Sequence record: NC_025447.1 | Length of the DNA: 64,000 bases | Direction: 5' to 3' (one strand) | Source of the DNA: Escherichia phage 121Q | Part shown: piece after piece, positions 13,839-52,032 of the stretch | Position numbering within the stretch: position 1 is the stretch's first letter | Layout of the letters: every line of letters starts with the position of its first letter | Made by a program: the position numbers and the translations under genes | The notes under the pieces: model-generated | What the model was told of the DNA's origin: nothing | The model's input: only the letters and a program-made list of their open reading frames with translations | Database searches by the model: none

Positions 13839-13889
<51 letters not shown>

Positions 13890-13895
13890 TAATTA

Positions 13896-13968: not shown

Positions 13969-13980
13969 CAAAATAAAGGT

Positions 13981-21171: not shown

Positions 21172-21395
21172 TTACTGCAACTGTATATCAAGATATCAAT
21201 GAAGAATTTCATTCTAAAATTGCGTTCTTATCATTTCCTGTACTCCCAGCAGTTGGGTCAACGTTGAATCTTACCATTTGTGGTTTTGAGAAATATTATA
21301 AAGTACTAGATATTGAGTACTGTGCTGATGTATATTCATGTAATAGTGAAATTGCAATTCCAGTATCAATCGATATTATTGTAAAAGAGGTTTGA
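21168..21395 (+). CDS. hypothetical protein
   Basis: ORF track; ATGA overlap. Confidence 0.4.
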   Translation: MITATVYQDINEEFHSKIAFLSFPVLPAVGSTLNLTICGFEKYYKVLDIEYCADVYSCNSEIAIPVSIDIIVKEV

Positions 21396-21397
21396 TT

Positions 21398-21853
21398 ATG
21401 TTTAAGAATTTTATGGTTATCGTAGCAGTACTGTTTGGTACATCATGTTTCATTTCCCCAGTACACGCAGAAGAACAACGTCAAACTATTAAAACTATTG
21501 GGACTGGTAAAACTCCCCCTAAACGTACTGCTGAAGAATACATGCCTGAAATGCGTGAACGTTATCGTCAGACATACAGGGAAAAACATGCTAATGATAA
21601 ACCCATCAAGAAGCATAAATGGGAAGTTGTTAAATCTCCTTCATTTTGTGCTGGATATGCTAAAGTAAAGATTGAGCAGCACAAAAACCAGTACTATAAA
21701 GATATGTATTCCTTCTATGACTCCAGAATTTCTGACACAGATATGATGGCAGGGAAGGTTGATAAAGAAGAATTTCTACAAGGCTATGATATGATGGACG
21801 ATGACAAAATCATGGAATGCGTTGAAGTGTATGAAAAATACAGAGGCTTCTGA
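21398..21853 (+). CDS. hypothetical secreted protein (signal peptide)
   Basis: ATG after AAAGAGG; N-terminus MFKNFMVIVAVLFGTSCFISPVHA. Confidence 0.45.
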   Translation: MFKNFMVIVAVLFGTSCFISPVHAEEQRQTIKTIGTGKTPPKRTAEEYMPEMRERYRQTYREKHANDKPIKKHKWEVVKSPSFCAGYAKVKIEQHKNQYYKDMYSFYDSRISDTDMMAGKVDKEEFLQGYDMMDDDKIMECVEVYEKYRGF

Positions 21854-28687: not shown

Positions 28688-28966
28688 ATGTCTTTTTCTA
28701 AAGAAGAACGTGACCTTATTAAAAAAGCAATTTGGTTTTATGCTAATGAAGGGAAGTGCGATGAAGAAAAAGCACGTGAACTGTGTAATATCCTTGAGAA
28801 GAAACAAGAACTGAAAGTGTATCGTATCCGTGATTTGGATGAAGGGGATCGTATTGTCCTAGCTGAAACAAAAGAAGAAGCAGAACAAATCTTCACTGAT
28901 AAAAACGAAAATCCACATTGGATGGAAGAAGTCTGTGATGTTAAAAAAGGTACTTATATCGATTGA
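28688..28966 (+). CDS. hypothetical protein
   Basis: ATG at 28688; track ORF 28673-28966. Confidence 0.45.
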   Translation: MSFSKEERDLIKKAIWFYANEGKCDEEKARELCNILEKKQELKVYRIRDLDEGDRIVLAETKEEAEQIFTDKNENPHWMEEVCDVKKGTYID

Positions 28967-28991
28967 CAGTACTGAATAATAGCAGTATAAT
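28963..28991 (+). promoter_or_regulatory. sigma70-like early promoter (TTGACA - 17 nt - TATAAT)
   Basis: Contains CAGTACTG; upstream of ORF 29085. Confidence 0.5.
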
Positions 28992-29084: not shown

Positions 29085-29393
29085 ATGTTTCAAACTAACA
29101 CTCAAGGTTTTGTAATCATCGATTTGAATCAAAACAGCGGTTATTGGATGAAACCTACTGACGCATGTATGCAGTTTGATTTCTTAGGTTACAGAATTAG
29201 TGTAAGTACTGGTGCTTCTGTACTGAGAGGTGGTTGTATCGTTGAACATCTGGTAACTGATCCAGAAGGTCGTGAGTATGAAATCGCAGGTTCAGTACAA
29301 GATGCCATTATGTTTGTATGTCAGCGTGAAATGAATGGTTCGAACTCAAATGCACTGACTCATGCTCTTTCTCAAGAAGTGGAGGTTCGTTAA
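29085..29393 (+). CDS. hypothetical protein
   Basis: ORF track; GAGGAA RBS-like upstream. Confidence 0.45.
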   Translation: MFQTNTQGFVIIDLNQNSGYWMKPTDACMQFDFLGYRISVSTGASVLRGGCIVEHLVTDPEGREYEIAGSVQDAIMFVCQREMNGSNSNALTHALSQEVEVR

Positions 29394-29644
29394 TGAAATA
29401 CATTGTAGCAGTACTCGTCGCATTTTTACTCACTGCATGTGATGCTTCAACCAAAGAACGCACAAGTGATTTTGAACTCCCTACTGAATTAAAAGAAGCA
29501 GGATGTAAGATTTATCGTATGCAACAGGAAGGTGCTGGTGCAACGTTGTATACAGTTTATTGTCCTAATGCAAACACCAGTACTGGATACACTAGCGGAA
29601 AAACACGAATCAACACTTCAGTGATTAATGGAGTACAACAATGA
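29393..29644 (+). CDS. putative lipoprotein
   Basis: N-terminus MKYIVAVLVAFLLTAC (lipobox-like LTAC). Confidence 0.45.
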   Translation: MKYIVAVLVAFLLTACDASTKERTSDFELPTELKEAGCKIYRMQQEGAGATLYTVYCPNANTSTGYTSGKTRINTSVINGVQQ

Positions 29645-30009
29645 GCCTTGATACAACCCGTGCAACAGATTTATTCACTCGTCTGAATGATGAAGAATAT
29701 CTTGCTGAAATAAAGTACAAGCTTGAAAAACTGGCTCGAAGTGCTGAAGTAATTGAAGTTAAAGGTCATTTACCAATGGATCAATTCCATACGTTCAAAG
29801 AAGATATGGTTTATTATCCAAATGAAATTTGGATTGAGTGGGAACATTGGACTAACAAAACTCTACGCATTGAAGGTTATTGTGTGAATTATGAATCTGA
29901 ACCTGGTGATGTTACAAAAACTCTCTCCATTTGGTGTACAAAAACACATGAACTAGTTGAGGTGAATTTGAATTATATGAAAGGTTTCCGTTGGGGTGAT
30001 ATTCAATGA
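29641..30009 (+). CDS. hypothetical protein
   Basis: ORF track. Confidence 0.45.
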   Translation: MSLDTTRATDLFTRLNDEEYLAEIKYKLEKLARSAEVIEVKGHLPMDQFHTFKEDMVYYPNEIWIEWEHWTNKTLRIEGYCVNYESEPGDVTKTLSIWCTKTHELVEVNLNYMKGFRWGDIQ

Positions 30010-30281
30010 TTAAAAAACTATTGACAGTTGTCTTTGTATTCTGTACAATGTTTCTTACAGCATGTAATGATGACGGCAGGTTTAGTGCAAAAGACTTAGT
30101 TCGTCAGGATTGTACATTCACAGGCAAGTCTTTTATTAACGAGTATGAAATATGTACACAATCAGGTCGTATCTGTGGTGGTTGGGAAAAACGTCAGGAG
30201 CGATTGTATGTATATGAATGCCCTGGACATCACAACAAAGTACTAAGCACACACAAACTTGTTTATGATAAGGTTGAATAA
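30006..30281 (+). CDS. putative lipoprotein
   Basis: N-terminus MIKKLLTVVFVFCTMFLTAC (lipobox-like). Confidence 0.45.
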   Translation: MIKKLLTVVFVFCTMFLTACNDDGRFSAKDLVRQDCTFTGKSFINEYEICTQSGRICGGWEKRQERLYVYECPGHHNKVLSTHKLVYDKVE

Positions 30282-30496
30282 TGACTACCAATGAAATGAT
30301 GCAGGTTATTTGGGATAAAGGTTGTGATATTAAAATCACCAGTACTGAAGTTCGTGTATTCAAAACAGAATATATGGAGTACTTGGACCTTGATACTTAT
30401 AATAATATTGTATCAATTGAACACAAAGGTGCAGTACTGGAAACGATTGATGTAGTTCTCAAGAAAGCTACCGACCTATTAGGAGTGGTAGTGTGA
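30281..30496 (+). CDS. hypothetical protein
   Basis: ORF track. Confidence 0.4.
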   Translation: MTTNEMMQVIWDKGCDIKITSTEVRVFKTEYMEYLDLDTYNNIVSIEHKGAVLETIDVVLKKATDLLGVVV

Positions 30497-30647
30497 ATAA
30501 CAAAGAGTGGGAAGATTACCGCAAGAAGTGCCGAGAGTTTGATAAAGAACTCACAGGTGCAGTGAACGCGGTAATGTGGGTATCTGCAATTATTGCAGTA
30601 CTTGGTTTGGGTGCTATTATTATTAATAAATTATTCTAAGGACTAAT

Positions 30648-30848
30648 ATGTTTACTTTATATCTTGCAGTAGTACTAACTAATGGTGAAATCACTCGCAC
30701 CGTTGGTGAAGGTGTATATAAAACACCTGATCAGTGTTACTCTGCAACTCATTGGCCTCGTGATGCTGGTGATGAAACTCGCACTGAATACAAATGTATG
30801 AAGGTTAAAGGTGACTTTGTAAATCTAAAGGTTATTGAGACTAAGTAA
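30648..30848 (+). CDS. hypothetical protein with N-terminal hydrophobic segment
   Basis: ORF track. Confidence 0.4.
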   Translation: MFTLYLAVVLTNGEITRTVGEGVYKTPDQCYSATHWPRDAGDETRTEYKCMKVKGDFVNLKVIETK

Positions 30849-31366
30849 TGGATATTAATGAGTTGTTGAAATTAGTGTTTAATCGTGAACGCCGCGATAC
30901 AAGACCAATTGAATATCAAGATGTGATACGCATTGAAACTGATTTCTGTTATGGTAAAACAACTCATGATCTTTTGAATCTCTCTGGAAAACGCTATGCT
31001 GATGTTTGTTTTTCAGAGAGAAGTGATGGTTCAGAAATAACAAGTACTGATATTGTTTGTTACGCACGCAGTGCTGATAAATCTTATGAAATAGAACTTA
31101 TATATTCCCCTAGTTCTAAAACAAATCATCACCGCCATATTTTATATGATGTTTACACACCACCTGGTATTGCTGAATATTTTGTTATTGATTATAGTAC
31201 TGAAGAAAATGTGTTTCAACAAAGTTTGATTCATAACTTTGAGGTGAATGATCCATTAGTACCAAAGTTGTTCAAACTACTTGACACCATCGATGTTGAC
31301 TTTGAATTTGTTATGTGCATTAGAACTTCTTTATTCAATGAATTCATGGAACTTTTTAATATATGA
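30848..31366 (+). CDS. hypothetical protein, EExFFQxST-motif family
   Basis: ORF track; product contains EENVFQQSLI. Confidence 0.45.
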   Translation: MDINELLKLVFNRERRDTRPIEYQDVIRIETDFCYGKTTHDLLNLSGKRYADVCFSERSDGSEITSTDIVCYARSADKSYEIELIYSPSSKTNHHRHILYDVYTPPGIAEYFVIDYSTEENVFQQSLIHNFEVNDPLVPKLFKLLDTIDVDFEFVMCIRTSLFNEFMELFNI

Positions 31367-31584
31367 ATAGATACTATGTTGTGTATGAACACGTCTCTGA
31401 ATTTAATAACATACGCGGGTTTTCCAGAGTAGTCACCAAGATGGATGTATTCATTCGTGCTCTTAGTGAAGTAGATGCACTGTTTAAATTGTTTGATGAA
31501 ATTACAAAGTATAACACACCCAAAACACACCGCTATGTGGAAACTGTACATAGCATTATGCTAACTGAAAGTGATGAGGAATGA
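31363..31584 (+). CDS. hypothetical protein
   Basis: ORF track. Confidence 0.4.
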   Translation: MNRYYVVYEHVSEFNNIRGFSRVVTKMDVFIRALSEVDALFKLFDEITKYNTPKTHRYVETVHSIMLTESDEE

Positions 31585-31587
31585 TAA

Positions 31588-31806
31588 ATGAATTTATATC
31601 TAGTTGAAGGTTTAGTACAAGTCTATAAACCAGAAGGTGAAGGTCAACGTTTTTCACACGTAGAAGAATTTAAGTACGTTGTACAGGCTGATGGTCAGTA
31701 CGATGCGGAAATTCAAGTAGATGAATCATTCCGTAAGAAAAATGAAATTGGTAAATTTCAATACCAGAACTTACAATACAAAGTATGGCCTAGCATAAAT
31801 GACTAA
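31588..31806 (+). CDS. hypothetical protein
   Basis: ORF track. Confidence 0.4.
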   Translation: MNLYLVEGLVQVYKPEGEGQRFSHVEEFKYVVQADGQYDAEIQVDESFRKKNEIGKFQYQNLQYKVWPSIND

Positions 31807-32014
31807 GATGTGGTGGTGTCATGGTGTATATAACGTGTATGTAAATGGTAGATATAAAATGTCTAGTACCTATGCAAGACGTGTTAATGCGAACAACCAA
31901 GTTGATGCTGCCTGTGAGATCATTGAGTGGTATGCTGAGTTCAATGCACCTGACTATATGTACGAAATAGTTACAATAAATGTTGTACAAATAGATACAT
32001 TTTTGATACAATAA
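31799..32014 (+). CDS. hypothetical protein
   Basis: ORF track. Confidence 0.4.
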   Translation: MTKMWWCHGVYNVYVNGRYKMSSTYARRVNANNQVDAACEIIEWYAEFNAPDYMYEIVTINVVQIDTFLIQ

Positions 32015-32045
32015 CCACATCAAAAAATTGCATCTGAGGATACTT

Positions 32046-32708
32046 ATGTTAGTTAATCTTAATTTCATCACTTCACCTGACTGGGCATTACGTGGGGTTT
32101 CTTTAAACTTCAAGGAAACTATGTTTGATTACATTGGTGAGTGTACATTGGTAAATGCAACTTTTGACCCAAATCATCCGTTCTGGGCTGAAATTCATGA
32201 TCCAACTGTAAACAACAATACATCTGTTATGACTATTGTCCAGACTAAACATGCAGGTATCCTTGCAGGTTATCGACCTGGACATGCAATTGAACACTTC
32301 ACTGATTACGATGTAGTGGATGAATACCCAATGATCCATGAAGATGGAAGTCTATACACATCTGAAGACTTCCGTGCTATCTTTAATAGTACTGATGATA
32401 TTCTACCAAGTGGACGTCCACGTCCTGAGTCTTATCTTATGCATCCATCTTATGGTGTAGCAGATACGCTTGAACAGATTATGAATAAGTACAAGAACCT
32501 AATTGAAGGTCCAGAAGAAATTGTCCTGTGCTATCACCCAGTACTTAAGTCTGAACAACCAAAGGATGGTGGATGGCGTTGGCATAAGAATGGTGAGTAT
32601 ATCGGTACTAAACGAAGTAAAGAACGTTTTGAGTACTTGTATGATGAACCAGATGTTGATGTGGTTTTGTGTTATAATTTTATTAAGGTGAAAAAGAAAT
32701 GTATCTAG
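32046..32708 (+). CDS. hypothetical protein
   Basis: ATG at 32046 after GAGGA; track ORF 32028-32708. Confidence 0.45.
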   Translation: MLVNLNFITSPDWALRGVSLNFKETMFDYIGECTLVNATFDPNHPFWAEIHDPTVNNNTSVMTIVQTKHAGILAGYRPGHAIEHFTDYDVVDEYPMIHEDGSLYTSEDFRAIFNSTDDILPSGRPRPESYLMHPSYGVADTLEQIMNKYKNLIEGPEEIVLCYHPVLKSEQPKDGGWRWHKNGEYIGTKRSKERFEYLYDEPDVDVVLCYNFIKVKKKCI

Positions 32709-32941
32709 TACTAAGTTTTGTTGTTGCACTATTGTTTATGTTCTATCCTACACTAGTGGCATTAGCCACTAGACGAACGATGGTAGATCTCACTACTGTA
32801 TTCTTGCTAAACGTGGCATTAGTACTGGTGTCTATTATCATTCCAGTGAGCTTTACAGTTATTGATATTATTTCGGTATTACTCTTCGTGTTAAGTTATC
32901 TTATGCTTATTGAAGAAACAAATGTTGACAAACGTTCGTAG
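32699..32941 (+). CDS. small membrane protein
   Basis: ORF track; two hydrophobic segments. Confidence 0.4.
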   Translation: MYLVLSFVVALLFMFYPTLVALATRRTMVDLTTVFLLNVALVLVSIIIPVSFTVIDIISVLLFVLSYLMLIEETNVDKRS

Positions 32942-32952
32942 TACTGTATAAT
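32925..32952 (+). promoter_or_regulatory. sigma70-like promoter (TTGACA - 16 nt - TATAAT)
   Basis: Spacer contains TAGTACTG; upstream of ORF 32999. Confidence 0.45.
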
Positions 32953-32998
32953 GGTTCCTGTAGTCTGAAACTTAACACTTAAACTTGAGGTAAAAAAT

Positions 32999-33325
32999 AT
33001 GCTATCAGTACTAATTTCAATTCCGTCTTTAATTCTGATTTGGCTTCTGGTTTACGAATGCTTTATTACTGATGATAATGATAAAAAAGAGTTCTCTGAG
33101 TTGTTTATGCTTGATTCACCGATTGTGCGTATTTTCTATACAGTCGTTGTGGTTTCAGTAATTGTATGGGTTTTGAGTTTTATCTTCCCACTCGGTGCAG
33201 TAGTTAAAACTTTGGATTTAGTTGAGAACTTTGTTGCAATTATGTGGCTAATCAAAGCACTATTTGCAGGAAATGTTAAAATTTGGATTGATATTATCAA
33301 ATTCAAGTTCACGAATAAGATGTAA
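32999..33325 (+). CDS. small membrane protein
   Basis: ORF track. Confidence 0.4.
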   Translation: MLSVLISIPSLILIWLLVYECFITDDNDKKEFSELFMLDSPIVRIFYTVVVVSVIVWVLSFIFPLGAVVKTLDLVENFVAIMWLIKALFAGNVKIWIDIIKFKFTNKM

Positions 33326-33403
33326 CAGTGAAAATATCTCTATAGTATTAAATACTTCTGTACATATATATAGTACAGAAGTATTTCTCGTTAGAGGTTT
33401 GTT

Positions 33404-33763
33404 ATGAAGAGTTATATAAAATTAATAGCACTTGTGTGTGCATTATTTTCATGTTTTAGTTATGGTGCAGCAGCAGAAACATATTGTCGTAGTACTAAGG
33501 GAACGTGGCATGTATTGACTAACGACCCTAGAAATGGTAAAAATATAGTTGTTGATGGTGTGATTTATCGTTTTAAAGTAGAAAGTATTATCGGTAATAA
33601 AAAAATCTCGACTTATAGAGATGATTCTGGTACATTAGCAAACGTAATATTAATTGTAGACCCAAGAACTGGTAATGGTGATATCTATATAGTAATTTAC
33701 TTGGACTCATCGGTACGCCGTGACCTAGATATAGATAAATTGAACTTACACTGTGAAATATAG
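33404..33763 (+). CDS. hypothetical secreted protein (signal peptide)
   Basis: N-terminus MKSYIKLIALVCALFSCFSYGAAA. Confidence 0.45.
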   Translation: MKSYIKLIALVCALFSCFSYGAAAETYCRSTKGTWHVLTNDPRNGKNIVVDGVIYRFKVESIIGNKKISTYRDDSGTLANVILIVDPRTGNGDIYIVIYLDSSVRRDLDIDKLNLHCEI

Positions 33764-33774
33764 GACTTAAAAAA

Positions 33775-34152
33775 ATGGTAAACACTATTTTACTTTTGTT
33801 GTTGAATATTCCAATTATTCTGTCTTTTTTAATTTCTATTTTTATGGCAGGATATTGTTTAGTTGCAGTAATTCATTTCATTTTAACAAACAAATATGTC
33901 CTAATTTCTAAGCTTGATTCTATTTTTGCTTGCGATTCGATTGCTTATAACTTGTGGTTAATTTGTTCTTGCATTATGGGAGTAACTTTCCTTCTGCATG
34001 TATTTGATGTCCTTGACCAAAAGTTCGTATACATCAGTACTGGATTGGCTCTTTATCCTGCTACGTGGTACTTGATTTACGTTGGTGATATATGGTATAG
34101 TACTTATAAAGAATATCAGTACAAGAAATCACTTAACGTTGGAGGAAAATAA
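33775..34152 (+). CDS. hypothetical membrane protein
   Basis: ORF track; polytopic hydrophobicity. Confidence 0.4.
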   Translation: MVNTILLLLLNIPIILSFLISIFMAGYCLVAVIHFILTNKYVLISKLDSIFACDSIAYNLWLICSCIMGVTFLLHVFDVLDQKFVYISTGLALYPATWYLIYVGDIWYSTYKEYQYKKSLNVGGK

Positions 34153-34154
34153 TC

Positions 34155-34505
34155 ATGAAAATTATTTTATTTTTTGTATGTATGTTAATGTGTGGATTGT
34201 CATATGCTGAACCATTGGAAGGTTTAGTTTGTACAGATGGTAATATTAAACATATCTATCAAGGTGATAGTGACGATAGAGATATTGTATATATTGATGG
34301 ACAATCATATACGTTTGTTAAAGAGCATACAGTAGGCGACATTAGCTTCACTGAGTTTTCTAACGACACAGACCCTAACTTCTTAGCGTTTATTGAAGTA
34401 GATGTATATGAAGATAGTAATGGTACACAATATGCTAAATTAGTTATGATGCGTCGTGGTGCTAAAGAAACTAGTTTTGGTGGCTTGTGTAAATATAAGG
34501 ATTGA
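34155..34505 (+). CDS. hypothetical secreted protein (signal peptide)
   Basis: N-terminus MKIILFFVCMLMCGLSYAEP. Confidence 0.45.
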   Translation: MKIILFFVCMLMCGLSYAEPLEGLVCTDGNIKHIYQGDSDDRDIVYIDGQSYTFVKEHTVGDISFTEFSNDTDPNFLAFIEVDVYEDSNGTQYAKLVMMRRGAKETSFGGLCKYKD

Positions 34506-34509
34506 TATT

Positions 34510-34701
34510 ATGTTGATTTATCAAGGTGATAATATTCGTGTTATGCAGCATCCCTACTTACAAATCTTTGATGTGCAGCAGTATATGGAAGGTGATGACC
34601 CAAGAACCTATGGTCGTAAGTATGATTACTTCACTGTAAAGCAGTGTAAAAATATTAACGAAGTACGACAATTAGTTCAAGAACTTCAAAACAAAGGTTG
34701 A
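34510..34701 (+). CDS. hypothetical protein
   Basis: ATG at 34510; track ORF 34456-34701. Confidence 0.35.
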   Translation: MLIYQGDNIRVMQHPYLQIFDVQQYMEGDDPRTYGRKYDYFTVKQCKNINEVRQLVQELQNKG

Positions 34702-34727
34702 CTTCGGTCAGCCTTTTTTGTTATAAT
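34695..34727 (+). promoter_or_regulatory. stem-loop terminator overlapping promoter (PeSL-like cassette)
   Basis: AAGGTTGAC-TTCG-GTCAGCCTT + T-run; TTGACT inside the stem and TATAAT 18 nt downstream. Confidence 0.55.
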
Positions 34728-34755
34728 TCTCTTAATAAATTAGAGGATTTTAATT

Positions 34756-35196
34756 ATGTATGTATATCGTTTTGAACTTAAATTTAGTTACATTGAACCT
34801 AACTTAGATCCTGCACGAACTGTAGGTCCGTTTGCACGGTATTCAACCAGATACAGTACTAAAAATGGATTTGACCGTTTGCTCATGACTACACCTTCTC
34901 AATTCCAACCTGAACCAACTGAGGATGGGATCTATTCAATCAAAAGTGGATGGGTATTTGGCTGTCAAAGTTTGAAAGATTTGTTCAGATTCTTCACTAT
35001 GGACTTAGGTAAATTGCATCGTGCTGGGTTTGCTATATCTGTATATGAAGTTCCAGACCACCATGTAGACATTGGTCGTAATCAGGTTCAGTACTATTGC
35101 GGTAGTGCTAAATTAGTTCGTATCATGTCAGTTAAGGAAGCAAAGGATGAGTTCCGACAAAGTAAAAGAGAAACACATGAGGTAATATATGGATAA
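34756..35196 (+). CDS. hypothetical protein
   Basis: ORF track. Confidence 0.45.
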   Translation: MYVYRFELKFSYIEPNLDPARTVGPFARYSTRYSTKNGFDRLLMTTPSQFQPEPTEDGIYSIKSGWVFGCQSLKDLFRFFTMDLGKLHRAGFAISVYEVPDHHVDIGRNQVQYYCGSAKLVRIMSVKEAKDEFRQSKRETHEVIYG

Positions 35197-35533
35197 AACT
35201 CAAATAGAATTAAAGAAATTTGTTTCATTCTATCTTCCTGATGACCCACGTAATTCACAAAAAGATATTGAATATTATAATATCCTATCTAAACAGTTAA
35301 TGAGAAAGTTTCAACAGTGTTTAACTATATTCAATACAGATGGAAGACGTAGATACCGAATCGTTTCAATGAATGATGAAAACGCAAATTTCTTTGATTA
35401 CGATGTGGTTTTTAGAGCATATAATGATGATCGTATAAAATTAAATTATGATCAAATTATACTTGACCTGAATGTTATATGTGTTATAATCACTCACGTA
35501 GCCGAACTTAATGGTTTTAAAGAATGGTATTGA
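35189..35533 (+). CDS. hypothetical protein
   Basis: ORF track. Confidence 0.4.
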   Translation: MDKTQIELKKFVSFYLPDDPRNSQKDIEYYNILSKQLMRKFQQCLTIFNTDGRRRYRIVSMNDENANFFDYDVVFRAYNDDRIKLNYDQIILDLNVICVIITHVAELNGFKEWY

Positions 35534-35547
35534 ATAAAGGATAACAT

Positions 35548-35814
35548 ATGAAGCTTAAATTACAATATAATGGATTTACTTTACGTAATGATACTGAATT
35601 TATTAATCGTTCTCCTGGTGCTGAACTGTTTTTACGAGAGATGAACATTCCTTTCATCATTACTACAGTGGGCGACCGTGAAGTTCTACAATACGCAGAG
35701 CATCCGATCATTGATGTTCCTTGGTACTCTGAGCATATGTACATGGATATGGCACGTCGCTACAACTGTAAGTTCGTAGTTGAAGGTGATAAAATTACAG
35801 TCGAATTTAAATAA
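35548..35814 (+). CDS. hypothetical protein
   Basis: ORF track. Confidence 0.4.
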   Translation: MKLKLQYNGFTLRNDTEFINRSPGAELFLREMNIPFIITTVGDREVLQYAEHPIIDVPWYSEHMYMDMARRYNCKFVVEGDKITVEFK

Positions 35815-35825
35815 GGTAAATTAAA

Positions 35826-36119
35826 ATGATCAGTACTTCAGTTAATGAAAGCATCGTCGCTGACGTAGAAATGGTTAAAGAATGTGCAGATGAAACTCTT
35901 CGTGATATGTACATTAATGATTTAATTACTGAATACGGTAGTCGTGGTGTACACGAATTTATTCGTTTAAGTGGAGAGTTGATGAAAAATCGAATTCGTA
36001 TGAAGCTTAACGTACATCCAAAAGCATGGGCATTTACATTAAAATACGCAGAAGATATTGTGAATTTGCGTCGAACTGAAGTATATGAACGTTTACACAA
36101 TGGTATGTTAGATAAATGA
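35826..36119 (+). CDS. hypothetical protein
   Basis: ORF track. Confidence 0.4.
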   Translation: MISTSVNESIVADVEMVKECADETLRDMYINDLITEYGSRGVHEFIRLSGELMKNRIRMKLNVHPKAWAFTLKYAEDIVNLRRTEVYERLHNGMLDK

Positions 36120-36171
36120 TTGTAAAATAGGAATTCTTAAATGAATTCCTTTTTGTTTATAAGGTATAGTA

Positions 36172-36393
36172 ATGAAATATATAGTACTTGTACTGATATT
36201 ATTCAGTACTGTTGTAAGTGCTAAACAAAAAGAATATGTTAAATGTATAAATTACGAAGAGAAATATGTTGAAACATATAAAAAAAGTATAATTAAAAAC
36301 GTTTCTATTACTGACCGAGGAACAATCATTGTACTTAAAAATGGGTTAATTATGTTATATAAACCACACGTTAAATGTGAAATTATTAATTGA
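36172..36393 (+). CDS. hypothetical secreted protein (signal peptide)
   Basis: N-terminus MKYIVLVLILFSTVVSA. Confidence 0.4.
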   Translation: MKYIVLVLILFSTVVSAKQKEYVKCINYEEKYVETYKKSIIKNVSITDRGTIIVLKNGLIMLYKPHVKCEIIN

Positions 36394-36400
36394 GGAAATT

Positions 36401-36973
36401 ATGAATCGTAAAGGTCGTTTTAAAGTATCAAAAAAGAACAAAAGTTCTAGGTTTAAACCTATTGTTTTAACAGTTAAATCTAACAAAGATTTAACTGCAC
36501 TTAGTAAAAAGATAATTTCATCTAAGATTGAAGTATCATACGTAAATTCATTAAAATATATGAATGTCAAACCACTGGACCAACTCATTTCACTTATATT
36601 TGAACGTAATGATTTTGAGATATCAGTAGATGATTATAGAGCCTATAATGCTGGTTTCATTAATGTTACTTGTAATAAAAAACTAACTGAGTTGGAAAAT
36701 TTGTCATGTATAATAAATCTAGATAAAGGTGTTGTGAAGTACCATTTTGTACATTTCACTAATATCAATAATGGAATGGGTGTACAATCCAGACCTATAG
36801 TGCCTACGTGTGATGTTACTAAATTAGCAAAGCTCAATGATGAAGAATATTTTCAAGAAAGCATTGTAACTGAGCATTTAGATGATATAATAGCTACTTA
36901 CAAAGAATGCATATGGGTGTTGAATGCTATAAAACCTAAATTGTGTTTAATGAATATTGTTCGTGATTTATGA
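36401..36973 (+). CDS. hypothetical protein, EExFFQxST-motif family
   Basis: ATG at 36401 after GAGGAAA; product contains DEEYFQESIV. Confidence 0.45.
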   Translation: MNRKGRFKVSKKNKSSRFKPIVLTVKSNKDLTALSKKIISSKIEVSYVNSLKYMNVKPLDQLISLIFERNDFEISVDDYRAYNAGFINVTCNKKLTELENLSCIINLDKGVVKYHFVHFTNINNGMGVQSRPIVPTCDVTKLAKLNDEEYFQESIVTEHLDDIIATYKECIWVLNAIKPKLCLMNIVRDL

Positions 36974-36986
36974 ATGGGGAATCGTA

Positions 36987-37430
36987 ATGAGTTGGGTAAA
37001 TGTTAATAGTATTGAACTTAACGAACAAGATATTTTTGCATTTGTAAATTTAACTAATAACACAGTACTAAAAGGGCGTTTGTTCAGTGCTAGTGATGGG
37101 TACAAATGGATCTCTTTGATGGATGATAGTGGTGTGATTTATAATGTAATGCAATTACCCCAATGGGTATATAGTAACACTGCTGACGATGTTCTTACCG
37201 CAGTTATGCGTGAGTTTGAAAAACTCCCAGGTGGTGATATCAAAAACAAAGTTTTTAATGCAGAACGTAAAAATTATACAGCACAGCAATTGGAATCCCT
37301 TGCCATTGCTGCTTATCAAGCTGCTATTAAGAAGCCAGAGTGCGTTATTCTTAAGTATGTACCAGACTTAAAACTTACGTTGGAAGACATGGATGCATTC
37401 ATTTTTACATCTGAACTTGAACAGTACTAA
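36987..37430 (+). CDS. hypothetical protein
   Basis: ATG at 36987; track ORF 36957-37430. Confidence 0.45.
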   Translation: MSWVNVNSIELNEQDIFAFVNLTNNTVLKGRLFSASDGYKWISLMDDSGVIYNVMQLPQWVYSNTADDVLTAVMREFEKLPGGDIKNKVFNAERKNYTAQQLESLAIAAYQAAIKKPECVILKYVPDLKLTLEDMDAFIFTSELEQY

Positions 37431-37545
37431 TTTAACTTTGGGACAACCATTCTTATTATGATATAATGTTTTATGTCATTCGATATAAATGACAACGGAA
37501 CTATAAATATTATAGTAAAATTTATCTCTTATAGGAGTTATAAAA

Positions 37546-37929
37546 ATGGTTGATAAATGGAATAAGAAAGATCCATCACATGATGTTGATATTTCTGGTC
37601 TAGACAATGCACATAAGCACAAGTATCTAGATTCACTAGGTCTTCTAAAACCAGACCAAAGTCTTGCACATGATCGTCCATCCCGTGAAAAAGCATTTAG
37701 CCTAGAATCACTAGGTCATGAGCTTAATCGTGTGTTTGAGGATCACCCAATCTATGTACGTGATATTATCGAGAAACTTAAAGTAACTCCTAAAGAGCAC
37801 TTTAAAGCAACTGTACACTCTGCATTCCGTGCATTACATGAATCTCTAAAGAAAACTCACAATCTTCGTAAAATTCATGATGAAATCGTGAATGCAATCG
37901 AAAGTGAAAAACATAAGTTCAAGAAGTAA
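37546..37929 (+). CDS. hypothetical protein (shares motifs with 38175-39686)
   Basis: ORF track; YLDSLGLLKPDQ and VTPKEHFKATVHSAFRAL resemble segments of the downstream 503-aa protein. Confidence 0.5.
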   Translation: MVDKWNKKDPSHDVDISGLDNAHKHKYLDSLGLLKPDQSLAHDRPSREKAFSLESLGHELNRVFEDHPIYVRDIIEKLKVTPKEHFKATVHSAFRALHESLKKTHNLRKIHDEIVNAIESEKHKFKK

Positions 37930-37935
37930 TAAAAA

Positions 37936-37968
37936 GGGTTGACTAAGGTCAGCCCTTTGTTGTATCAT
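37936..37968 (+). promoter_or_regulatory. stem-loop terminator overlapping promoter (PeSL-like cassette, variant)
   Basis: GGGTTGAC-TAAG-GTCAGCCC hairpin, then TTTGTTG and TATCAT. Confidence 0.45.
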
Positions 37969-38117
37969 AACTTCTCAATATAACTGAGGTATCATATATG
38001 CAAGGTTTAAAATTTGTAGTTGCTGCACTCATCGCCGCAGTACTGGTTGGTGGTGTATTCTATGTAGTGGATCAAAAAGTAAATCCACCTGCACAAGAAC
38101 AATCTAAGTAACAAAAT

Positions 38118-38150
38118 AAGGTTGACTTCGGTCAGCCTTTTCTTTATACT
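38118..38150 (+). promoter_or_regulatory. stem-loop terminator overlapping promoter (PeSL-like cassette)
   Basis: AAGGTTGAC-TTCG-GTCAGCCTT + T-rich; TATACT downstream. Confidence 0.5.
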
Positions 38151-38174
38151 ATAAATATAGACATAGAGAAAAAA

Positions 38175-39686
38175 ATGAAATCTATGGAGAGAAATCAAAT
38201 GCCAAGTAATTTTACTGATAAAAATGGTGGTAACATGGCTGGTCACTCTGATAAATGGAGTGAACGCAACCGCCGTCCAAATAGTTATCAAGCAGGTCAA
38301 GGTTCACGTGGGTCACGTAACCAAGGAACTGGTCTAGCTGGTAAAGCAAACGCAGAAGCAGGTGAAGTTAAGAGTACTGAGAACATGACTGAGCTAGAAA
38401 AGCTACGTTATGTTAACTCATTAGGTCTTCTTAACGCAACACAAAAACAACGCCTTGCTGATATGGAACGTGCTGAGAAAGAACAAGCAGTTCCTAAAGA
38501 AGAACCAAAAGCAGAAGTACCTAAAGCTGCTAACCCTGTTAAAGAGTTATCAGATAACTTAGGTAAGATCTTTGCTAACAAACCACAGTTGATTCAGGGT
38601 ATTGTCAAAGCACTACAGGCAGTTCCTAAAGAAGAACTCAAAGGTAAAGCACAAGCTGTACTTGATGTAATGAAAGGTAATAAGAGCACTGAACCAACTG
38701 AAGTATTCAGTACTATCATGCGTGCACTTGAAGGTACACACAAAGAAGATTCCAAAGAACCTGAACAGGGTGAAGCAAGTCTTGATGGTATTCTTAAAAC
38801 TTTTGATAATATTGGTAAAGCAGACCGTGCTAATGCCCAGCAAGTCAAGAATGTACTGGCTAAACTTGAAAACCGTTTAGAAGGTAAAGACGATAAGGTT
38901 AAGCTCGTATCAGATGCAGTTAACAGTGCACTTAAATCTTATGTACAAGGTGAGAAAAGTCGCTTCGTAACAGCTATGGATGCTGCATTCAACACTATGA
39001 AAAAGTATGAAGCAGAACATGGTGAGAAGGTAACACCAGATGGTTATCTAAAGCGTGCAGATGAAGAGGGTGCAGTTGAACAGAAAGATGTTGAGCCTGA
39101 GCAAGAAGAAATACCTGATACCGTTGATATGGATGGATACATTCATCGTCCTGAGATGGAAGAGTTTGGGTCAGATAAAGAAGGTTTTGAACATGCAATG
39201 GCAGTATATAAAGCATTAGTTAAAAATCCAGATTATGCTAACCGTTTTGTTGACGAGTTTGATAGTGCATGGAATAACTACAAAGAGAAAGGTTATGACT
39301 TCCCTGCTGAAGCTGCATTCTTTGAACTTGGTAAACTATTAGCTAAACATGGAATTGACGTTGGTTCATCTGATTCCGAAGGTATGGAAGAAGAACATCT
39401 TGAAATGACCGATAAATCAATTCATGAACTTCAAAAGCTAATGATGTGGATATCCGAGATTGGCAAAAAAGCAGGTGCTGATCGTAAAAGTATCAACAAA
39501 AACATTAGTTGGATTAAAGATAATGTTGGTAACAATGCTCGTAAACTTCAAAAGGCGTGGGCTGATTTAGTAAATGGTGCAGATGATGTTGACATTGAAT
39601 CACCAGAAGCATATGAGTATGCACTAACTACACTTGATAACTCATTCAAAGAGTACGACAGTGGTGTTGGAAAGGATAAAAAATAA
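38175..39686 (+). CDS. hypothetical acidic protein (503 aa) with internal repeats
   Basis: Long ORF flanked by terminator cassettes; repeated NSLGLL and AVPKEE/VPKEELK segments. Confidence 0.55.
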   Translation: MKSMERNQMPSNFTDKNGGNMAGHSDKWSERNRRPNSYQAGQGSRGSRNQGTGLAGKANAEAGEVKSTENMTELEKLRYVNSLGLLNATQKQRLADMERAEKEQAVPKEEPKAEVPKAANPVKELSDNLGKIFANKPQLIQGIVKALQAVPKEELKGKAQAVLDVMKGNKSTEPTEVFSTIMRALEGTHKEDSKEPEQGEASLDGILKTFDNIGKADRANAQQVKNVLAKLENRLEGKDDKVKLVSDAVNSALKSYVQGEKSRFVTAMDAAFNTMKKYEAEHGEKVTPDGYLKRADEEGAVEQKDVEPEQEEIPDTVDMDGYIHRPEMEEFGSDKEGFEHAMAVYKALVKNPDYANRFVDEFDSAWNNYKEKGYDFPAEAAFFELGKLLAKHGIDVGSSDSEGMEEEHLEMTDKSIHELQKLMMWISEIGKKAGADRKSINKNISWIKDNVGNNARKLQKAWADLVNGADDVDIESPEAYEYALTTLDNSFKEYDSGVGKDKK

Positions 39687-39693
39687 ACATTTA

Positions 39694-39730
39694 AAAGGTT
39701 GACTTCGGTCAACCTTTTTTTGTAAATATA
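39694..39730 (+). promoter_or_regulatory. stem-loop terminator overlapping promoter (PeSL-like cassette)
   Basis: AAAGGTTGAC-TTCG-GTCAACCTTT + TTTTTT. Confidence 0.55.
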
Positions 39731-39757
39731 AAAGAGGAATTAAGAAGAGGGATTACA

Positions 39758-40009
39758 ATGAAAAAATATATTATATTTGGAATTGTATTATTTTCCAGTA
39801 CTAGTTATGGTGCAGATTATCATTGCTCCGTAGCAAGACAGGATTTCAGAAATGGGGATTTCTATACCACTTCATACACAAAAGGAATAATACACGACAT
39901 CGACACAACTATTGGATTTAATGCATTTGATAACAAAGATTCATATACTTCAGGTATACTATCTGAGCGTAAGACTGATGTAATGGGAATAGAAAAAGAG
40001 TTCCGGTGA
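39758..40009 (+). CDS. hypothetical secreted protein (signal peptide)
   Basis: N-terminus MKKYIIFGIVLFSSTSYGA. Confidence 0.45.
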   Translation: MKKYIIFGIVLFSSTSYGADYHCSVARQDFRNGDFYTTSYTKGIIHDIDTTIGFNAFDNKDSYTSGILSERKTDVMGIEKEFR

Positions 40010-40019
40010 TTCAGTAGCA

Positions 40020-40343
40020 ATGTGCAATGACATTGAAAGTACTAAAACAATTTATTATAATAATGAACGTAATTATCGTTTTCATAATTTAACCACAAAT
40101 AAAAGTTTACTATTTTACAATTGTAAAGAAGTAAAACTCCCACCCGACAATAGCTGTAACCCGACGAACCCATCACCAGCACAATGTAATACTCAATCTG
40201 AACCTGATAACAATAAAAAAGACAAAGATAAAGATAAAAAAGAAGACAAAAAACCTTTAAAAGATAAAAAGAAAGATAAAAAACCTAATCCGTTTAAAAA
40301 TAATAAACCAGCACAACCCGATATGACGTGTAAAATAAAATAA
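40020..40343 (+). CDS. hypothetical Lys/Asp-rich protein
   Basis: ORF track; KDKDKDKKEDKK low-complexity tract. Confidence 0.35.
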   Translation: MCNDIESTKTIYYNNERNYRFHNLTTNKSLLFYNCKEVKLPPDNSCNPTNPSPAQCNTQSEPDNNKKDKDKDKKEDKKPLKDKKKDKKPNPFKNNKPAQPDMTCKIK

Positions 40344-40352
40344 GGATATATA

Positions 40353-40772
40353 ATGAAAAAGATTTTTTTAAGTATTATTTTAGTACTTTTTAGTTTTAAT
40401 GTATATGCAGCAGATGCTAAACAGGTTGCAAATACAGTAAAAGATGTTATAGTAGATAATGCTCCTACATTAGAGGAAATTGGGGTAAAAACTTGTGATA
40501 TTGTAATATATAATTTAGTTAATGATGAACGAGTTATGTTGAATACGTATGAACAAGTAGTCCCATTGGTTGAATCTGGTGATGCTTTTAGCTTTACATA
40601 TAAAGTTAAATTAACAGGAGGGGTTGAAGTTAATCTTGACATTGATACCGCTTCAGTACTAAAAGATAAACTAGGATATGTGTTCAATCGTATTCGTGAA
40701 GAAGGTCATCTTAAGTATGTTTATGAAAGTAAAATACTAAAACGTGCAATAGTTATAGAAAACTGTAAATGA
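40353..40772 (+). CDS. hypothetical secreted protein (signal peptide)
   Basis: N-terminus MKKIFLSIILVLFSFNVYAA. Confidence 0.45.
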   Translation: MKKIFLSIILVLFSFNVYAADAKQVANTVKDVIVDNAPTLEEIGVKTCDIVIYNLVNDERVMLNTYEQVVPLVESGDAFSFTYKVKLTGGVEVNLDIDTASVLKDKLGYVFNRIREEGHLKYVYESKILKRAIVIENCK

Positions 40773-40779: not shown

Positions 40780-40813
40780 AGGGTTGACTTCGGTCAGCCT
40801 TTTTTGTTATGAT
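40780..40813 (+). promoter_or_regulatory. stem-loop terminator overlapping promoter (PeSL-like cassette)
   Basis: GGGTTGAC-TTCG-GTCAGCC + TTTTTT; TATGAT downstream. Confidence 0.5.
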
Positions 40814-40841
40814 GTTGATATTAACTACAGAGGATAAAGTA

Positions 40842-41483
40842 ATGACTAAGCAAGAAATATTCAAAACTTTAATTGACATTTTGCGTCCATCAAAAACTCG
40901 TTGTGCGATGGAGTTTGATATTCCTTATGCTGAACGCGTAATCTTTCCACAAGTTAAAGCTGCTGGACTTACTTTGCTTGGAATGGGGATGTACTCTGTA
41001 GTAGTTGAACATAAAAACTATCCTGGGCGTGCATTTAAAGTAACCACTTCACGCTGGGATGGTTTTCGTGCTTATGCAAAGTACTGCATTGAAAACGCAG
41101 GAACCAAGTTTCTTCCAGTGATCTACAGTGCCAACGAACAAGGAAACTTTGGATGGTATGAGATGGACAAGTACTATCCTATAATTAAACAAAAAAATAA
41201 TTATGATGACTTTGTTAGTACTAAAATTGGAGATTTATATTCTTATGCACATGCTGGTCAGTACGCTACTTCAGTGAATGATATGCGTGGTAATTCTGAA
41301 GAGATTGCTATTGCAACGGTCGCTGCTAACATCATGAAAGAGTTTCACGGGCGTTTTGTACCAGACATTCATTCAAGTAATGTAATGATGGATAAAGATG
41401 GGAATGTATTCATTACTGATCCTCTTTCGTGTGATGTGCGTAGAGAAATACCAATTACTGAAGAAGATCCAGTTTTTTATTGA
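40842..41483 (+). CDS. hypothetical protein
   Basis: ATG at 40842 after AGAGGA; track ORF 40809-41483. Confidence 0.45.
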   Translation: MTKQEIFKTLIDILRPSKTRCAMEFDIPYAERVIFPQVKAAGLTLLGMGMYSVVVEHKNYPGRAFKVTTSRWDGFRAYAKYCIENAGTKFLPVIYSANEQGNFGWYEMDKYYPIIKQKNNYDDFVSTKIGDLYSYAHAGQYATSVNDMRGNSEEIAIATVAANIMKEFHGRFVPDIHSSNVMMDKDGNVFITDPLSCDVRREIPITEEDPVFY

Positions 41484-41828: not shown

Positions 41829-42167
41829 ATGGAACAATATTTTGAATTAATAAACAAAGTATCATTTTATGTAGTATCTTTGGTTTGGGTGTATTATATG
41901 TTTTGCTATATTATTGCATTCTTCCGATATACTACTTTATATGAACGTATCTACTATGATGCCCCAATTTCATTCTTGATGTTTTGTGCCTGTACGTGGG
42001 GAATATTAGAAGTACTGATATGTGGGTATAGTACTGATGAATTAAATCTGGTATCGGTGTTGACTGGGTTTTCATTTGTTGTTATGATAGCTGCCGTTCC
42101 AGTATGGTTGTTCTTTGGACTAGTTCATCGCATTGATATATGGCGTTCTAATATCCCTGAAAAGTAA
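41829..42167 (+). CDS. small polytopic membrane protein, paralog family (C-terminal RxNIPEK-type motif)
   Basis: Hydrophobic segments; ends HRIDIWRSNIPEK. Confidence 0.45.
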   Translation: MEQYFELINKVSFYVVSLVWVYYMFCYIIAFFRYTTLYERIYYDAPISFLMFCACTWGILEVLICGYSTDELNLVSVLTGFSFVVMIAAVPVWLFFGLVHRIDIWRSNIPEK

Positions 42168-42176
42168 GGATTGGTA

Positions 42177-42518
42177 ATGATTTATTACACTAACATGTTT
42201 GCCTATGCTGTTGCTTGCATTTACATTGTTTACTTCTTATTCGGTGGAGTACTGTGCTTCTTTAAGTACAAAACGTTGTTCAACCGAATGTACCCAAATC
42301 ATCCAATTGTAGTTGTACTTTTGATTCTTTCAGTTTCTCAAATAATCGTTGAAACTACAATGGGTATCAGTAGTGTACATTATAGTTTTGGTACTATAGT
42401 AATTATTACTATGCTTATTGCATACATTTTAGTACTTGGATATGGTATCTTTGGTAATATTGGTATGAAAATGTATCATCGAATTAAAACATTACGTGAT
42501 AATCTACCGGAGCGTTGA
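42177..42518 (+). CDS. small polytopic membrane protein, paralog family
   Basis: ATG at 42177; ends HRIKTLRDNLPER. Confidence 0.45.
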   Translation: MIYYTNMFAYAVACIYIVYFLFGGVLCFFKYKTLFNRMYPNHPIVVVLLILSVSQIIVETTMGISSVHYSFGTIVIITMLIAYILVLGYGIFGNIGMKMYHRIKTLRDNLPER

Positions 42519-42519
42519 T

Positions 42520-42864
42520 ATGTATAATTTGAACCTAATCTCATATATTATAACAACACTGTTTACATTCTATGCCTTTGTTGGTATAATCCTACTGTAC
42601 TTTAAATTTTATAAAGTGTTTAACCGTTTCTATCCTTCAATGGAGAATGAGTTTTTCTTTGTGTTGTACGTAGGTTACACATTAATGGCTACATGTTTCA
42701 CTGTAGCCGATGGTGTCATCGGCATTAAAACTGATTCCCCAAATGGTAGTACGCTGGTTGCATTTATTCTTACTGGATTCCTTGCAACTTATATTGCCTT
42801 CATTACAACATGGTCAGTGGTTGAATTTCTCTTGCGACTACGAAAGAATATGCCGAATCGATAG
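42520..42864 (+). CDS. small polytopic membrane protein, paralog family
   Basis: ATG at 42520; ends LLRLRKNMPNR. Confidence 0.45.
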   Translation: MYNLNLISYIITTLFTFYAFVGIILLYFKFYKVFNRFYPSMENEFFFVLYVGYTLMATCFTVADGVIGIKTDSPNGSTLVAFILTGFLATYIAFITTWSVVEFLLRLRKNMPNR

Positions 42865-44366: not shown

Positions 44367-44618
44367 ATGAAAATATTATTAGTTCTAATACTACTAATAG
44401 TTTTACCATTTACTTTAGTATCCCCTGGACTTGCATGGAATGTATTTGTGTACTTAGTATGTACTATTGTAGTAAATGGTATCTTGTTCTTAGTTCTATT
44501 CATAAATGGAATAGGACACGGTGGAGGATGGACCAGTACTGCTGATATTGTACATAAAACCACTATGTCTTTATTTGTAATGTGGAATTTGTTCTGGACT
44601 TGGTTTGTGTTCTTCTAA
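44367..44618 (+). CDS. small membrane protein
   Basis: ORF track; hydrophobic throughout. Confidence 0.4.
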   Translation: MKILLVLILLIVLPFTLVSPGLAWNVFVYLVCTIVVNGILFLVLFINGIGHGGGWTSTADIVHKTTMSLFVMWNLFWTWFVFF

Positions 44619-44626
44619 TTAAAAAT

Positions 44627-44998
44627 ATGAATATAGATTTGAAAGGTGCAACACGAACTGTTATCCTCATTGGGGAATATGCTATCAAGATTCCAACCTT
44701 TAAAAGTTGGAAGCTATTCTTAACAGGGATGATAGCTAACCTCAATGAACGTTCGTGGATGCAGTACTCCAATCGTAGTGATAGTAGTATCTGTCCTACG
44801 TTGTGGTCATCATGTACTGGACTAGTAACTGTACAGAAACGTTGTAAGCCAGTGCAACATAGGGGTTTATTTTGGGTGGAGTTGTGTGCATTAGCATCTA
44901 AATCAGAGTTGAGTACTGACTTCTTCTATTCAGATGCGAAGCCAGAAAACTTTGGGTATCTGGGTGGTAAGTTAGTTAAACTTGATTATGGAGATTAA
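44627..44998 (+). CDS. hypothetical protein
   Basis: ATG at 44627; track ORF 44582-44998. Confidence 0.4.
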   Translation: MNIDLKGATRTVILIGEYAIKIPTFKSWKLFLTGMIANLNERSWMQYSNRSDSSICPTLWSSCTGLVTVQKRCKPVQHRGLFWVELCALASKSELSTDFFYSDAKPENFGYLGGKLVKLDYGD

Positions 44999-48383: not shown

Positions 48384-48710
48384 ATGAAAAAGTTAATGTT
48401 AGTTATGTTAATGTGTTTATCAACAACAGTGAATGCAAAAAATGAATCATCAACTACTTGTAAATCTTCAAAAACTGATACGATTTATCAACTGTATTTG
48501 GATGTTTCAACAAAAACTGCTAAAATTGATGGAAAGAAATTTATGTTCGAAAGTCAAGAAGTTTTTAAAGACGGGAGTGGTTCATATACTATTTTTTCAA
48601 ATGATAAATTAAATCAAAAATTAAAAGTTTTTGTTATAAAACCAAATAAGATAAAATATATAATTACCTATAATGGTAAAAATATTGATATGGGTAATTG
48701 TGTGTATTAA
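48384..48710 (+). CDS. hypothetical secreted protein (signal peptide)
   Basis: N-terminus MKKLMLVMLMCLSTTVNA. Confidence 0.45.
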   Translation: MKKLMLVMLMCLSTTVNAKNESSTTCKSSKTDTIYQLYLDVSTKTAKIDGKKFMFESQEVFKDGSGSYTIFSNDKLNQKLKVFVIKPNKIKYIITYNGKNIDMGNCVY

Positions 48711-51667: not shown

Positions 51668-51668
51668 T

Positions 51669-52031: not shown

Positions 52032-52032
52032 T

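Follow-up and report, generated by a model that had tools for sequence, protein, structure and literature searches.

What use has a jumbo phage for a whole series of small proteins that carry export signals? The question is raised by the stretch of DNA analyzed here (the window; 64,000 nucleotides [nt] of sequence record NC_025447.1, Escherichia phage 121Q), in which a preliminary description had singled out small open reading frames (ORFs) with signal peptides in an island at 29393-40772 and one more at 48384. By its sequence, the window belongs to an Escherichia Asteriusvirus jumbo phage (PBECO4/121Q group): the 12 kb around the island are 96 to 98.6% identical to the Asteriusvirus jumbo phages CRJP21, PBECO4, Sharanji, G17, and phAPEC6 and ~86% identical to the 121Q-type sublineage. 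Jumbo phages of this group have ~550 to 670 annotated genes, most without assigned function, and nearly every gene of this region is labeled "hypothetical" in the records of the relatives. Genes are referred to here by their start coordinates and lie on the + strand, which carries the genes of the window as far as ~53 kb, unless otherwise noted. Our analysis indicates that most of the predicted secreted proteins and lipoproteins of the phage are concentrated in this one stretch.

Predicted exported proteins and their clustering

All eight candidate ORFs (29393, 30006, 33404, 34155, 36172, 39758, 40353, and 48384) were confirmed at these coordinates, and each has an ATG start with a Shine-Dalgarno-like motif upstream. 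Signal peptides were called with a heuristic, rule-based scan that accepted an N terminus when its n-region had a net positive charge, its core was hydrophobic and uncharged over at least 8 residues, the -3/-1 rule was obeyed, and no transmembrane (TM) segment came later. The scan flagged all eight, as the preliminary description had proposed, along with a ninth ORF absent from its list, at 21392-21853 (153 amino acids [aa], predicted cleavage between VHA and EE). In each of the eight, the n-region contains Lys or Arg, a hydrophobic core follows, and the cleavage site is of the small-x-small type. Seven of the nine products (33404, 34155, 36172, 39758, 40353, 48384, and 21392) have the features of Sec/signal peptidase I substrates, with h-regions of 8 to 15 residues. 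The other two, 29393 (29393-29644, 83 aa) and 30006 (30006-30281, 91 aa, with four other Cys residues), end their signal peptides in a lipobox of the form [LVI][ASTVI][GAS]C. The two LTAC motifs noticed earlier are thus genuine and canonical: LLTA before the Cys in 29393 (MKYIVAVLVAFLLTA followed by C) and FLTA before the Cys in 30006 (MIKKLLTVVFVFCTMFLTA followed by C). LFSC occurs in 33404 too, but homologues of this protein have no lipobox at all, so we treat it as an ordinary secreted protein. The remaining secreted proteins are 33404 (33404-33763, 119 aa), 34155 (34155-34505, 116 aa), 36172 (36172-36393, 73 aa, cleavage between VSA and KQ), 39758 (39758-40009, 83 aa, between SYG and AD), 40353 (40353-40772, 139 aa, between VYA and AD), and 48384 (48384-48710, 108 aa).

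Small membrane proteins are indeed interspersed among these genes. They comprise a 48-aa protein with one C-terminal TM segment (30493-30639), an 80-aa protein with 2 to 3 TM segments (32699-32941; the annotation of Klebsiella phage Muenster gives the homologous protein three TM domains), and two larger proteins, 32999 and 33775, described below. Further membrane proteins are encoded downstream, at 41829-42864, 44367, and 49623-52404. Two of these loci, 41829-42864 and 49623-50984, are tandem arrays of paralogous 3-TM proteins of ~112 to 122 aa (phrog_19285 and phrog_19454), so the membrane protein enrichment reaches past the span first described.

Such ORFs had been called unusually numerous. 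We assembled the complete PBECO4 genome and applied the identical scan to it, and on this scale, which is that of one genome rather than of other phages, the impression holds. The scan flagged 21 of 609 PBECO4 ORFs. Nine of the 21 fall among the 64 ORFs of a 26-kb interval that matches the window (174 to 200.5 kb; hypergeometric p = 1e-4), and the span that corresponds to the island has 7 flagged ORFs out of 29 (p = 2e-5). By eye, approximately nine of the ORFs flagged in the rest of the genome resemble TM anchors rather than cleavable peptides, so that about three classical signals remain outside the interval. Membrane proteins are also enriched in the 174- to 200.5-kb interval (13 of 67; p = 0.015). 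These statistics indicate that the clustering is real within the genome.

Several observations support export. Homologues of the 33404/34155 family with only 20 to 50% identity all start with signal peptides. In the syntenic locus of Muenster (CPT annotation, with SignalP/TMHMM), two unrelated ORFs, 494 and 522, are labeled "putative secreted protein"; the homologues of 34155 (516) and 33404 (514) are labeled as a membrane protein with one TM domain and as hypothetical, respectively, but despite these labels the translations of both have signal peptide-like N termini. The lipobox Cys of 29393 is invariant across 74 aligned homologues. With the lipid-modified Cys excluded, exactly two Cys residues are present in six of the nine mature chains and four in one more. 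The pair occupies positions 7 and 96 of 98 in 33404, 8 and 94 of 98 in 34155, 8 and 52 of 56 in 36172, and 8 and 88 of 90 in 48384; that is, in these four proteins the residues lie 7 to 8 positions from the mature N terminus and 3 to 5 from the C terminus, a layout that, as far as sequence can tell, is the pattern expected of periplasmic proteins oxidized by DsbA. Finally, the ratios of nonsynonymous to synonymous substitution (dN/dS) relative to the 121Q-type genome are 0.13 to 0.35 for the five secreted-protein genes with a computable value (dS is saturated in 33404 and 34155, whose dN/dS therefore has no value). Because the signals and lipoboxes are kept in homologues of 20 to 50% identity, the Cys residues are paired near the mature ends, and dN/dS is below 1, it is strongly supported that these are real proteins under purifying selection, with conserved signals predicted to direct them to the envelope.

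Public records represent the island poorly, with several of its genes missing, truncated, or mislabeled. The phAPEC6 annotation omits the homologues of 29393, 30006, and 33404. In CRJP21 (OQ708376, 6158-8397), the labels "structural protein" (on the homologues of 34155 and 34756) and "protein kinase" (on the homologue of 36172) proved to be displaced by nine genes. Spanins were considered and rejected as an identity for the lipoprotein locus: the curated PBECO4/121Q spanin pair consists of other genes at a distant site (PBECO4 39998-40678), and the ORF that separates the two lipoprotein genes lacks TM segments.

An operon of membrane proteins and predicted barrels

Four genes of the island form a single promoter-to-terminator unit in which membrane and secreted proteins alternate. 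A predicted inner-membrane protein with 3 TM segments (32999-33325, 108 aa; phrog_31401) is followed by the secreted protein 33404, a membrane protein with 2 to 3 TM segments (33775-34152, 125 aa; phrog_31707), and the secreted protein 34155. A perfect sigma-70 promoter (32925-32952) lies 47 nt before 32999, and a hairpin terminator, AAAGGTTGACTTCGGTCAGCCTTT (34693-34716), closes the operon; the TTGACT of this hairpin is the -35 element of the next promoter-like site. The operon occurs in RaK2-like phages of Klebsiella as well; in Muenster, the identical four-gene order is found at 23 to 40% identity, with flanking genes at 46 to 75%. This old, conserved pairing of membrane and secreted proteins is an argument that each membrane protein of the operon functions with its periplasmic neighbor.

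The secreted proteins 33404 and 34155 are paralogues, and 48384 is a probable third. This relationship is indicated by blastp (1e-3), by hhalign (5e-6 and 1e-3), and by the common layout C...IDGxxYxF...C. The PBECO4 version of the third paralogue (174237-174464) is truncated to 75 aa, and a database homologue, P0012, has 60 aa; these truncations suggest that some lineages can do without 48384 or are losing it. When 1.8 billion proteins were searched exhaustively with a profile of the family, only about eight small phage homologues were recovered, and tblastn placed the family in Asteriusvirus and in RaK2-like phages of Klebsiella (Alcyoneusvirus). Repeat proteins that matched the family hidden Markov model through a short C..DG.SY.F motif were judged spurious, and a match among PDB profiles to the cell wall-binding repeats of C. 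difficile toxin A (33 residues, E = 0.004) was taken to reflect a beta-hairpin motif, not homology. An AlphaFold model of 34155 has eight beta strands at low confidence (predicted local distance difference test score [pLDDT], 62), and Foldseek found no significant match to this model in the PDB; the fold neighbors of the barrel include lysozyme inhibitors, a type VI secretion system (T6SS) immunity protein, and lipocalin-like binders. A small eight-strand beta fold is plausible on this model, and we refer to the family as barrels in that sense.

Promoters, hairpins, and timing

Perfect TTGACA-N16-18-TATAAT sites are far more frequent in the window than expected by chance. There are ten, all on the coding strand, at 2131, 3991, 4538, 20464, 22310, 23672, 28615, 28963, 32925, and 43510, compared with an expectation of 0.23; several have an extended AGTACTGTATAAT -10 region in common. 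The PBECO4 genome has 29 perfect sigma-70 sites, all likewise on its main coding strand. The site at 28963-28991 (TTGACA-17-TATAAT), which is present in phAPEC6 too, precedes a run of genes (29085-30848) to which both lipoprotein genes belong. The operon promoter at 32925 remains perfect in CRJP21, fEgEco12, vB_Ec-M-J, and phAPEC6 even though the genes downstream of it have diverged.

A 22-nt hairpin whose loop is UUCG (AAGGTTGACTTCGGTCAGCCTT; consensus A[A/G]GGTTGACTTCGGTCAGCC[T/C]T) recurs seven times in the window, at 34694, 38118, 39695, 40780, 45275, 46557, and 48725. Copies terminate the 32999-34701 unit, flank the 39758-40772 unit (39695-39716 upstream and a matching hairpin at 40780-40801 that closes it), and follow 48384. 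The flanked unit begins with 39758 and ends with 40353; between them lies a 107-aa ORF (40020-40343), rich in Cys and in Lys/Asp, that lacks a signal peptide and follows a weak ribosome-binding site, and its membership in the exported set is uncertain. In several hairpins TTGACT doubles as the -35 element of a downstream promoter-like site. The hairpins look like terminators and, if so, would form a repeated terminator-promoter module. Consensus sigma-70 promoters point to transcription by the host RNA polymerase and hence to early genes, and, as a prediction from sequence, their abundance here supports early transcription of the island.

Distribution of the lipoproteins and genus-specific proteins

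The two lipoproteins differ in how widely they are distributed. The family of 29393 (phrog_902), with conserved VVRCPN and GK motifs, is found in 583 phage records, among them Felixounavirus, Vequintavirinae, a T4-like Acinetobacter phage, Eneladusvirus, and many Vibrio phages, and all copies are annotated as hypothetical. In the T4-like Acinetobacter phage Acj61, the phrog_902 gene (1495-1746) lies two genes from 61.1/61, the neighborhood in which T4 carries sp (61.3). The Pfam tag PF16225, precomputed for homologues of the lipoprotein, was not reproduced by hmmscan and was discarded. The second lipoprotein, 30006, is possibly a distant paralogue of 29393 and is distributed among Asteriusvirus, a few Salmonella jumbo phages, and one Klebsiella phage record.

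For the secreted proteins 36172 and 40353, homologues came only from Asteriusvirus and closely similar Salmonella-hosted records; 40353 is at least 99% identical across PBECO4-type phages, its positional orthologue in 121Q-type phages is ~41% identical, and its mature chain had no match among PDB sequences. In the family-profile scans, the sole match of 39758 was phrog_28901, a family of unknown function.

Divergence from 121Q-type genomes

The envelope genes of the island have diverged more than their surroundings. Compared with a 121Q-type genome, cytoplasmic neighbors are typically 88 to 99% identical, whereas identities are 59% for 32999, 62% for 33404, 44% for 33775, 78% for 34155, 51% for 36172, 67% for 39758, and 41% for 40353. 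The two lipoproteins do not follow this trend (92% and 99%). The secreted proteins have a median dN of 0.20, versus 0.055 for cytoplasmic neighbors (Mann-Whitney p = 0.03, or 0.01 with membrane proteins included). Since dS is saturated in the divergent genes too, this pattern may reflect old alleles exchanged by recombination rather than simple positive selection. The 121Q-type loci at ~8470-8710 and 10500-11055 carry three extra small ORFs, inserted in the island, that are absent from the window; two of them are labeled "immunity to superinfection" in the vB_Ec-M-J record, and the single Imm_superinfect match, to the first of the three, is below threshold (E = 0.014).

Neighboring genes

A gene for a T7 gp0.7-like protein kinase, so described in the note on phAPEC6 gp031c, follows the island at 40809-41483, and a shorter ORF at 44582-44998 has, by eye, motifs resembling a kinase catalytic loop. 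Within the island, among the early genes, 37546-37929 and 38175-39686 encode a weakly paralogous pair whose phAPEC6 homologues, gp037c and gp035c, are virion proteins identified by mass spectrometry; the window proteins may therefore be injected. Farther upstream, five paralogous mini-genes of 54 to 66 aa that start with MTHEEWM (8478-10176) are interleaved with tRNA genes, of which there are six at 8682-13969, one called as tRNA-Ser with an unusual ACT anticodon. At the other end, on the - strand at 53089-63797, lie at least seven paralogous genes with conserved N termini (MLPFxRMVKYGN), corresponding to the "RCC1/DNA condensation" proteins of PBECO4. Similarly named "DNA condensation" proteins (gp003 to gp010) were detected in phAPEC6 virions; they are matched to the array of the window by name alone.

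Possible functions of the island

Genes of this kind had been interpreted in the preliminary description as typical of superinfection exclusion or remodeling of the host envelope. The targeting to the envelope and the early timing on which that interpretation leaned are supported by our analysis; the exclusion or remodeling function itself we still infer, with no match to a known family. The reading that we favor, and that we judge to be possible but a little short of probable, is an early envelope-protection battery that would exclude superinfecting or competing phages; superinfection exclusion by the island is plausible but unproven. In this model, the early accessory island would send into the host envelope a battery of small proteins: two lipoproteins, three paralogous ~95-residue periplasmic proteins, and several genus-specific secreted proteins. 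In the periplasmic paralogues, which are modeled as small beta barrels, a disulfide probably ties the two ends of the chain together, and two of the three are encoded directly behind a 2- to 3-TM inner-membrane protein. Soon after infection, the envelope would thus be remodeled in a way that protects a long infection cycle. Acting from the periplasm in the way of T5 Llp, Cor, and Rtp45, the lipoproteins may bind and block receptors of the outer membrane or routes of entry, while the periplasmic proteins and their membrane partners may neutralize incoming tail components or genome delivery, as do Sp and Imm of T4. Superinfecting and competing phages would be excluded as a result, and fewer progeny would be lost to cell debris. 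The readings weighed here are not all mutually exclusive.

A more specific version, which we regard as doubtful, holds that the island combines two envelope systems: the conserved, tandemly duplicated module of Asteriusvirus and Alcyoneusvirus, in which a 2- to 3-TM inner-membrane protein is paired with a disulfide-closed periplasmic barrel, would be an exclusion or antilysozyme device of a new kind, and phrog_902 would be a widespread exclusion lipoprotein of virulent phages that has so far gone unrecognized. If this were true, both systems together would make the island a multitarget shield with which a slow jumbo phage holds its host against faster competitors.

The envelope might instead be manipulated for other ends, such as inhibition of periplasmic hydrolases or proteases, effects on porins, transport, or vesiculation, or protection against colicins or T6SS attack. 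Localization, early promoters, and clustering fit this alternative equally well, the fold neighbors of the barrel model (lysozyme inhibitors, a T6SS immunity protein, and lipocalin-like binders) are compatible with it, and early host takeover genes such as that for the gp0.7-like kinase lie nearby. We consider it somewhat unlikely. No specific target is indicated, and the higher divergence of the periplasmic genes suits variable external opponents better than conserved host targets, although this does not decide between the two.

It is distinctly unlikely, in our view, that the barrels are inhibitors of lysozymes (peptidoglycan hydrolases) that act against tail lysozymes or lysis from without, which would be a narrower form of the envelope protection proposed above. 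Lysozyme inhibitors are among the fold neighbors of the low-confidence model, for which Foldseek gave no significant match, and this identity is only a lead. The MliC/PliC inhibitors are bacterial rather than phage proteins and are 4 to 9% identical to the barrels, in which the conserved motif is IDGxxYxF, and no Pfam match between the MliC/PliC profile and the barrels was obtained at E values up to 1.

Lysis timing is a further alternative, in which the membrane-plus-secreted pairs would be regulators that resemble holin/antiholin pairs or sensors of lysis inhibition such as T4 T/RI/RIII. In T4, the holin is bound by RI, itself a small protein exported to the periplasm, and in the operon small 2- to 3-TM proteins adjoin small periplasmic proteins. 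However, the operon has a consensus sigma-70 promoter of early type, it is distant from the spanins and annotated lysozymes of PBECO4, the pair is tandemly duplicated, and no holin or RI family match was found; together, these features make the alternative quite improbable. Finally, an artifact, that is, chance hydrophobic N termini of junk or miscalled ORFs, or components of the virion or spanins, is extremely improbable and already largely refuted: starts are shorter in some relatives, PHROG profiles begin at residue 10 or 11, phAPEC6 omits three of the genes, and CRJP21 labels the 34155 homologue structural, but ribosome-binding sites precede the long starts, dN/dS is 0.13 to 0.35 where computable, export signals persist in distant homologues, the homologues of 38175 and 37546 (gp035c and gp037c) are the only proteins from this region in the phAPEC6 virion proteome, the labels in CRJP21 are displaced, and the PBECO4 spanins are encoded far away.

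The island narrows the search to a few testable candidates: two lipoproteins, of which one represents a family present in hundreds of therapeutic-type phages, and a conserved module of membrane and periplasmic proteins. These could account for the way phages interfere with one another in cocktails and mixed infections. Should they prove to block receptors or tail enzymes, they would be ready-made probes of envelope proteins; if they do not, the annotation of these genomes is improved all the same.

Comparison with known systems

To our knowledge, exclusion or envelope-remodeling proteins of virulent phages amount to a handful of cases (Imm and Sp of T4, Llp of T5, Cor, and Rtp45). Searches of Pfam, PHROGs, NCBIfam, and the PDB matched no candidate to Imm, Sp, Llp, or any other known exclusion family; in the first three databases, the candidates and neighboring membrane proteins hit only families of unknown function or subthreshold noise such as Myticin, TrbK, and CT795.

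Cor (phi80, HK022, T1, and N15; phrog_1119) resembles 29393 in being a lipoprotein precursor of ~77 to 83 residues, and annotations of relatives carry its name over to this lipoprotein. The phrog_1119 match is weak, with an E value of 4.6e-3 for the window protein and of 0.01 or less in 22 of 74 family members. Full-length hhalign gave an E value of 9.5e-6 that was driven by the signal peptide; with mature sequences only, the score was 13.4 and the E value 0.044, within the range of shuffled sequences. Because the similarity falls to shuffle level without the signal peptide, we rejected the identification as Cor. The two also differ in the placement of Cys, which is at the C terminus in Cor and in a midchain RCPN motif in the 29393 family.

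Sp (Spackle, gp61.3) and Imm of T4 are early myovirus proteins, one periplasmic and the other a small inner-membrane protein, that jointly counter superinfection and lysis from without. The island presents a similar combination of an exported periplasmic protein and a small inner-membrane protein, predicted to be early, in a virulent phage. No match to PF14373 (Imm) or to Sp profiles was found among the membrane and secreted proteins of the window in Pfam and PHROGs. Sp is helical, whereas the barrel family is predicted to be all beta, and in the island the membrane and periplasmic genes adjoin and are duplicated, in contrast with the T4 arrangement.

Llp of T5 and Rtp45 of phage Rtp are lipoproteins that block the outer-membrane receptor of their own phage (FhuA or LptD) from the periplasmic side (PMC9586334, PMC12685063). 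The likeness lies in a small lipoprotein of ~60 to 70 mature residues with a disulfide, made early by a virulent phage; here, export, timing, and disulfide are predicted. No sequence or fold similarity to the solved Llp and Rtp45 proteins was found. Publications on PBECO4, 121Q, phAPEC6, Sharanji, and fEgEco12 are silent on the island genes. Early, envelope-targeted accessory proteins of virulent phages are a kind already known, to which the proteins predicted here would add members that, by sequence, are unrelated to the earlier ones. What appears to be new, and goes unmentioned in the literature that we searched on this phage group, is the tandem membrane-plus-barrel module and the concentration of predicted exported proteins in one island of a jumbo phage.

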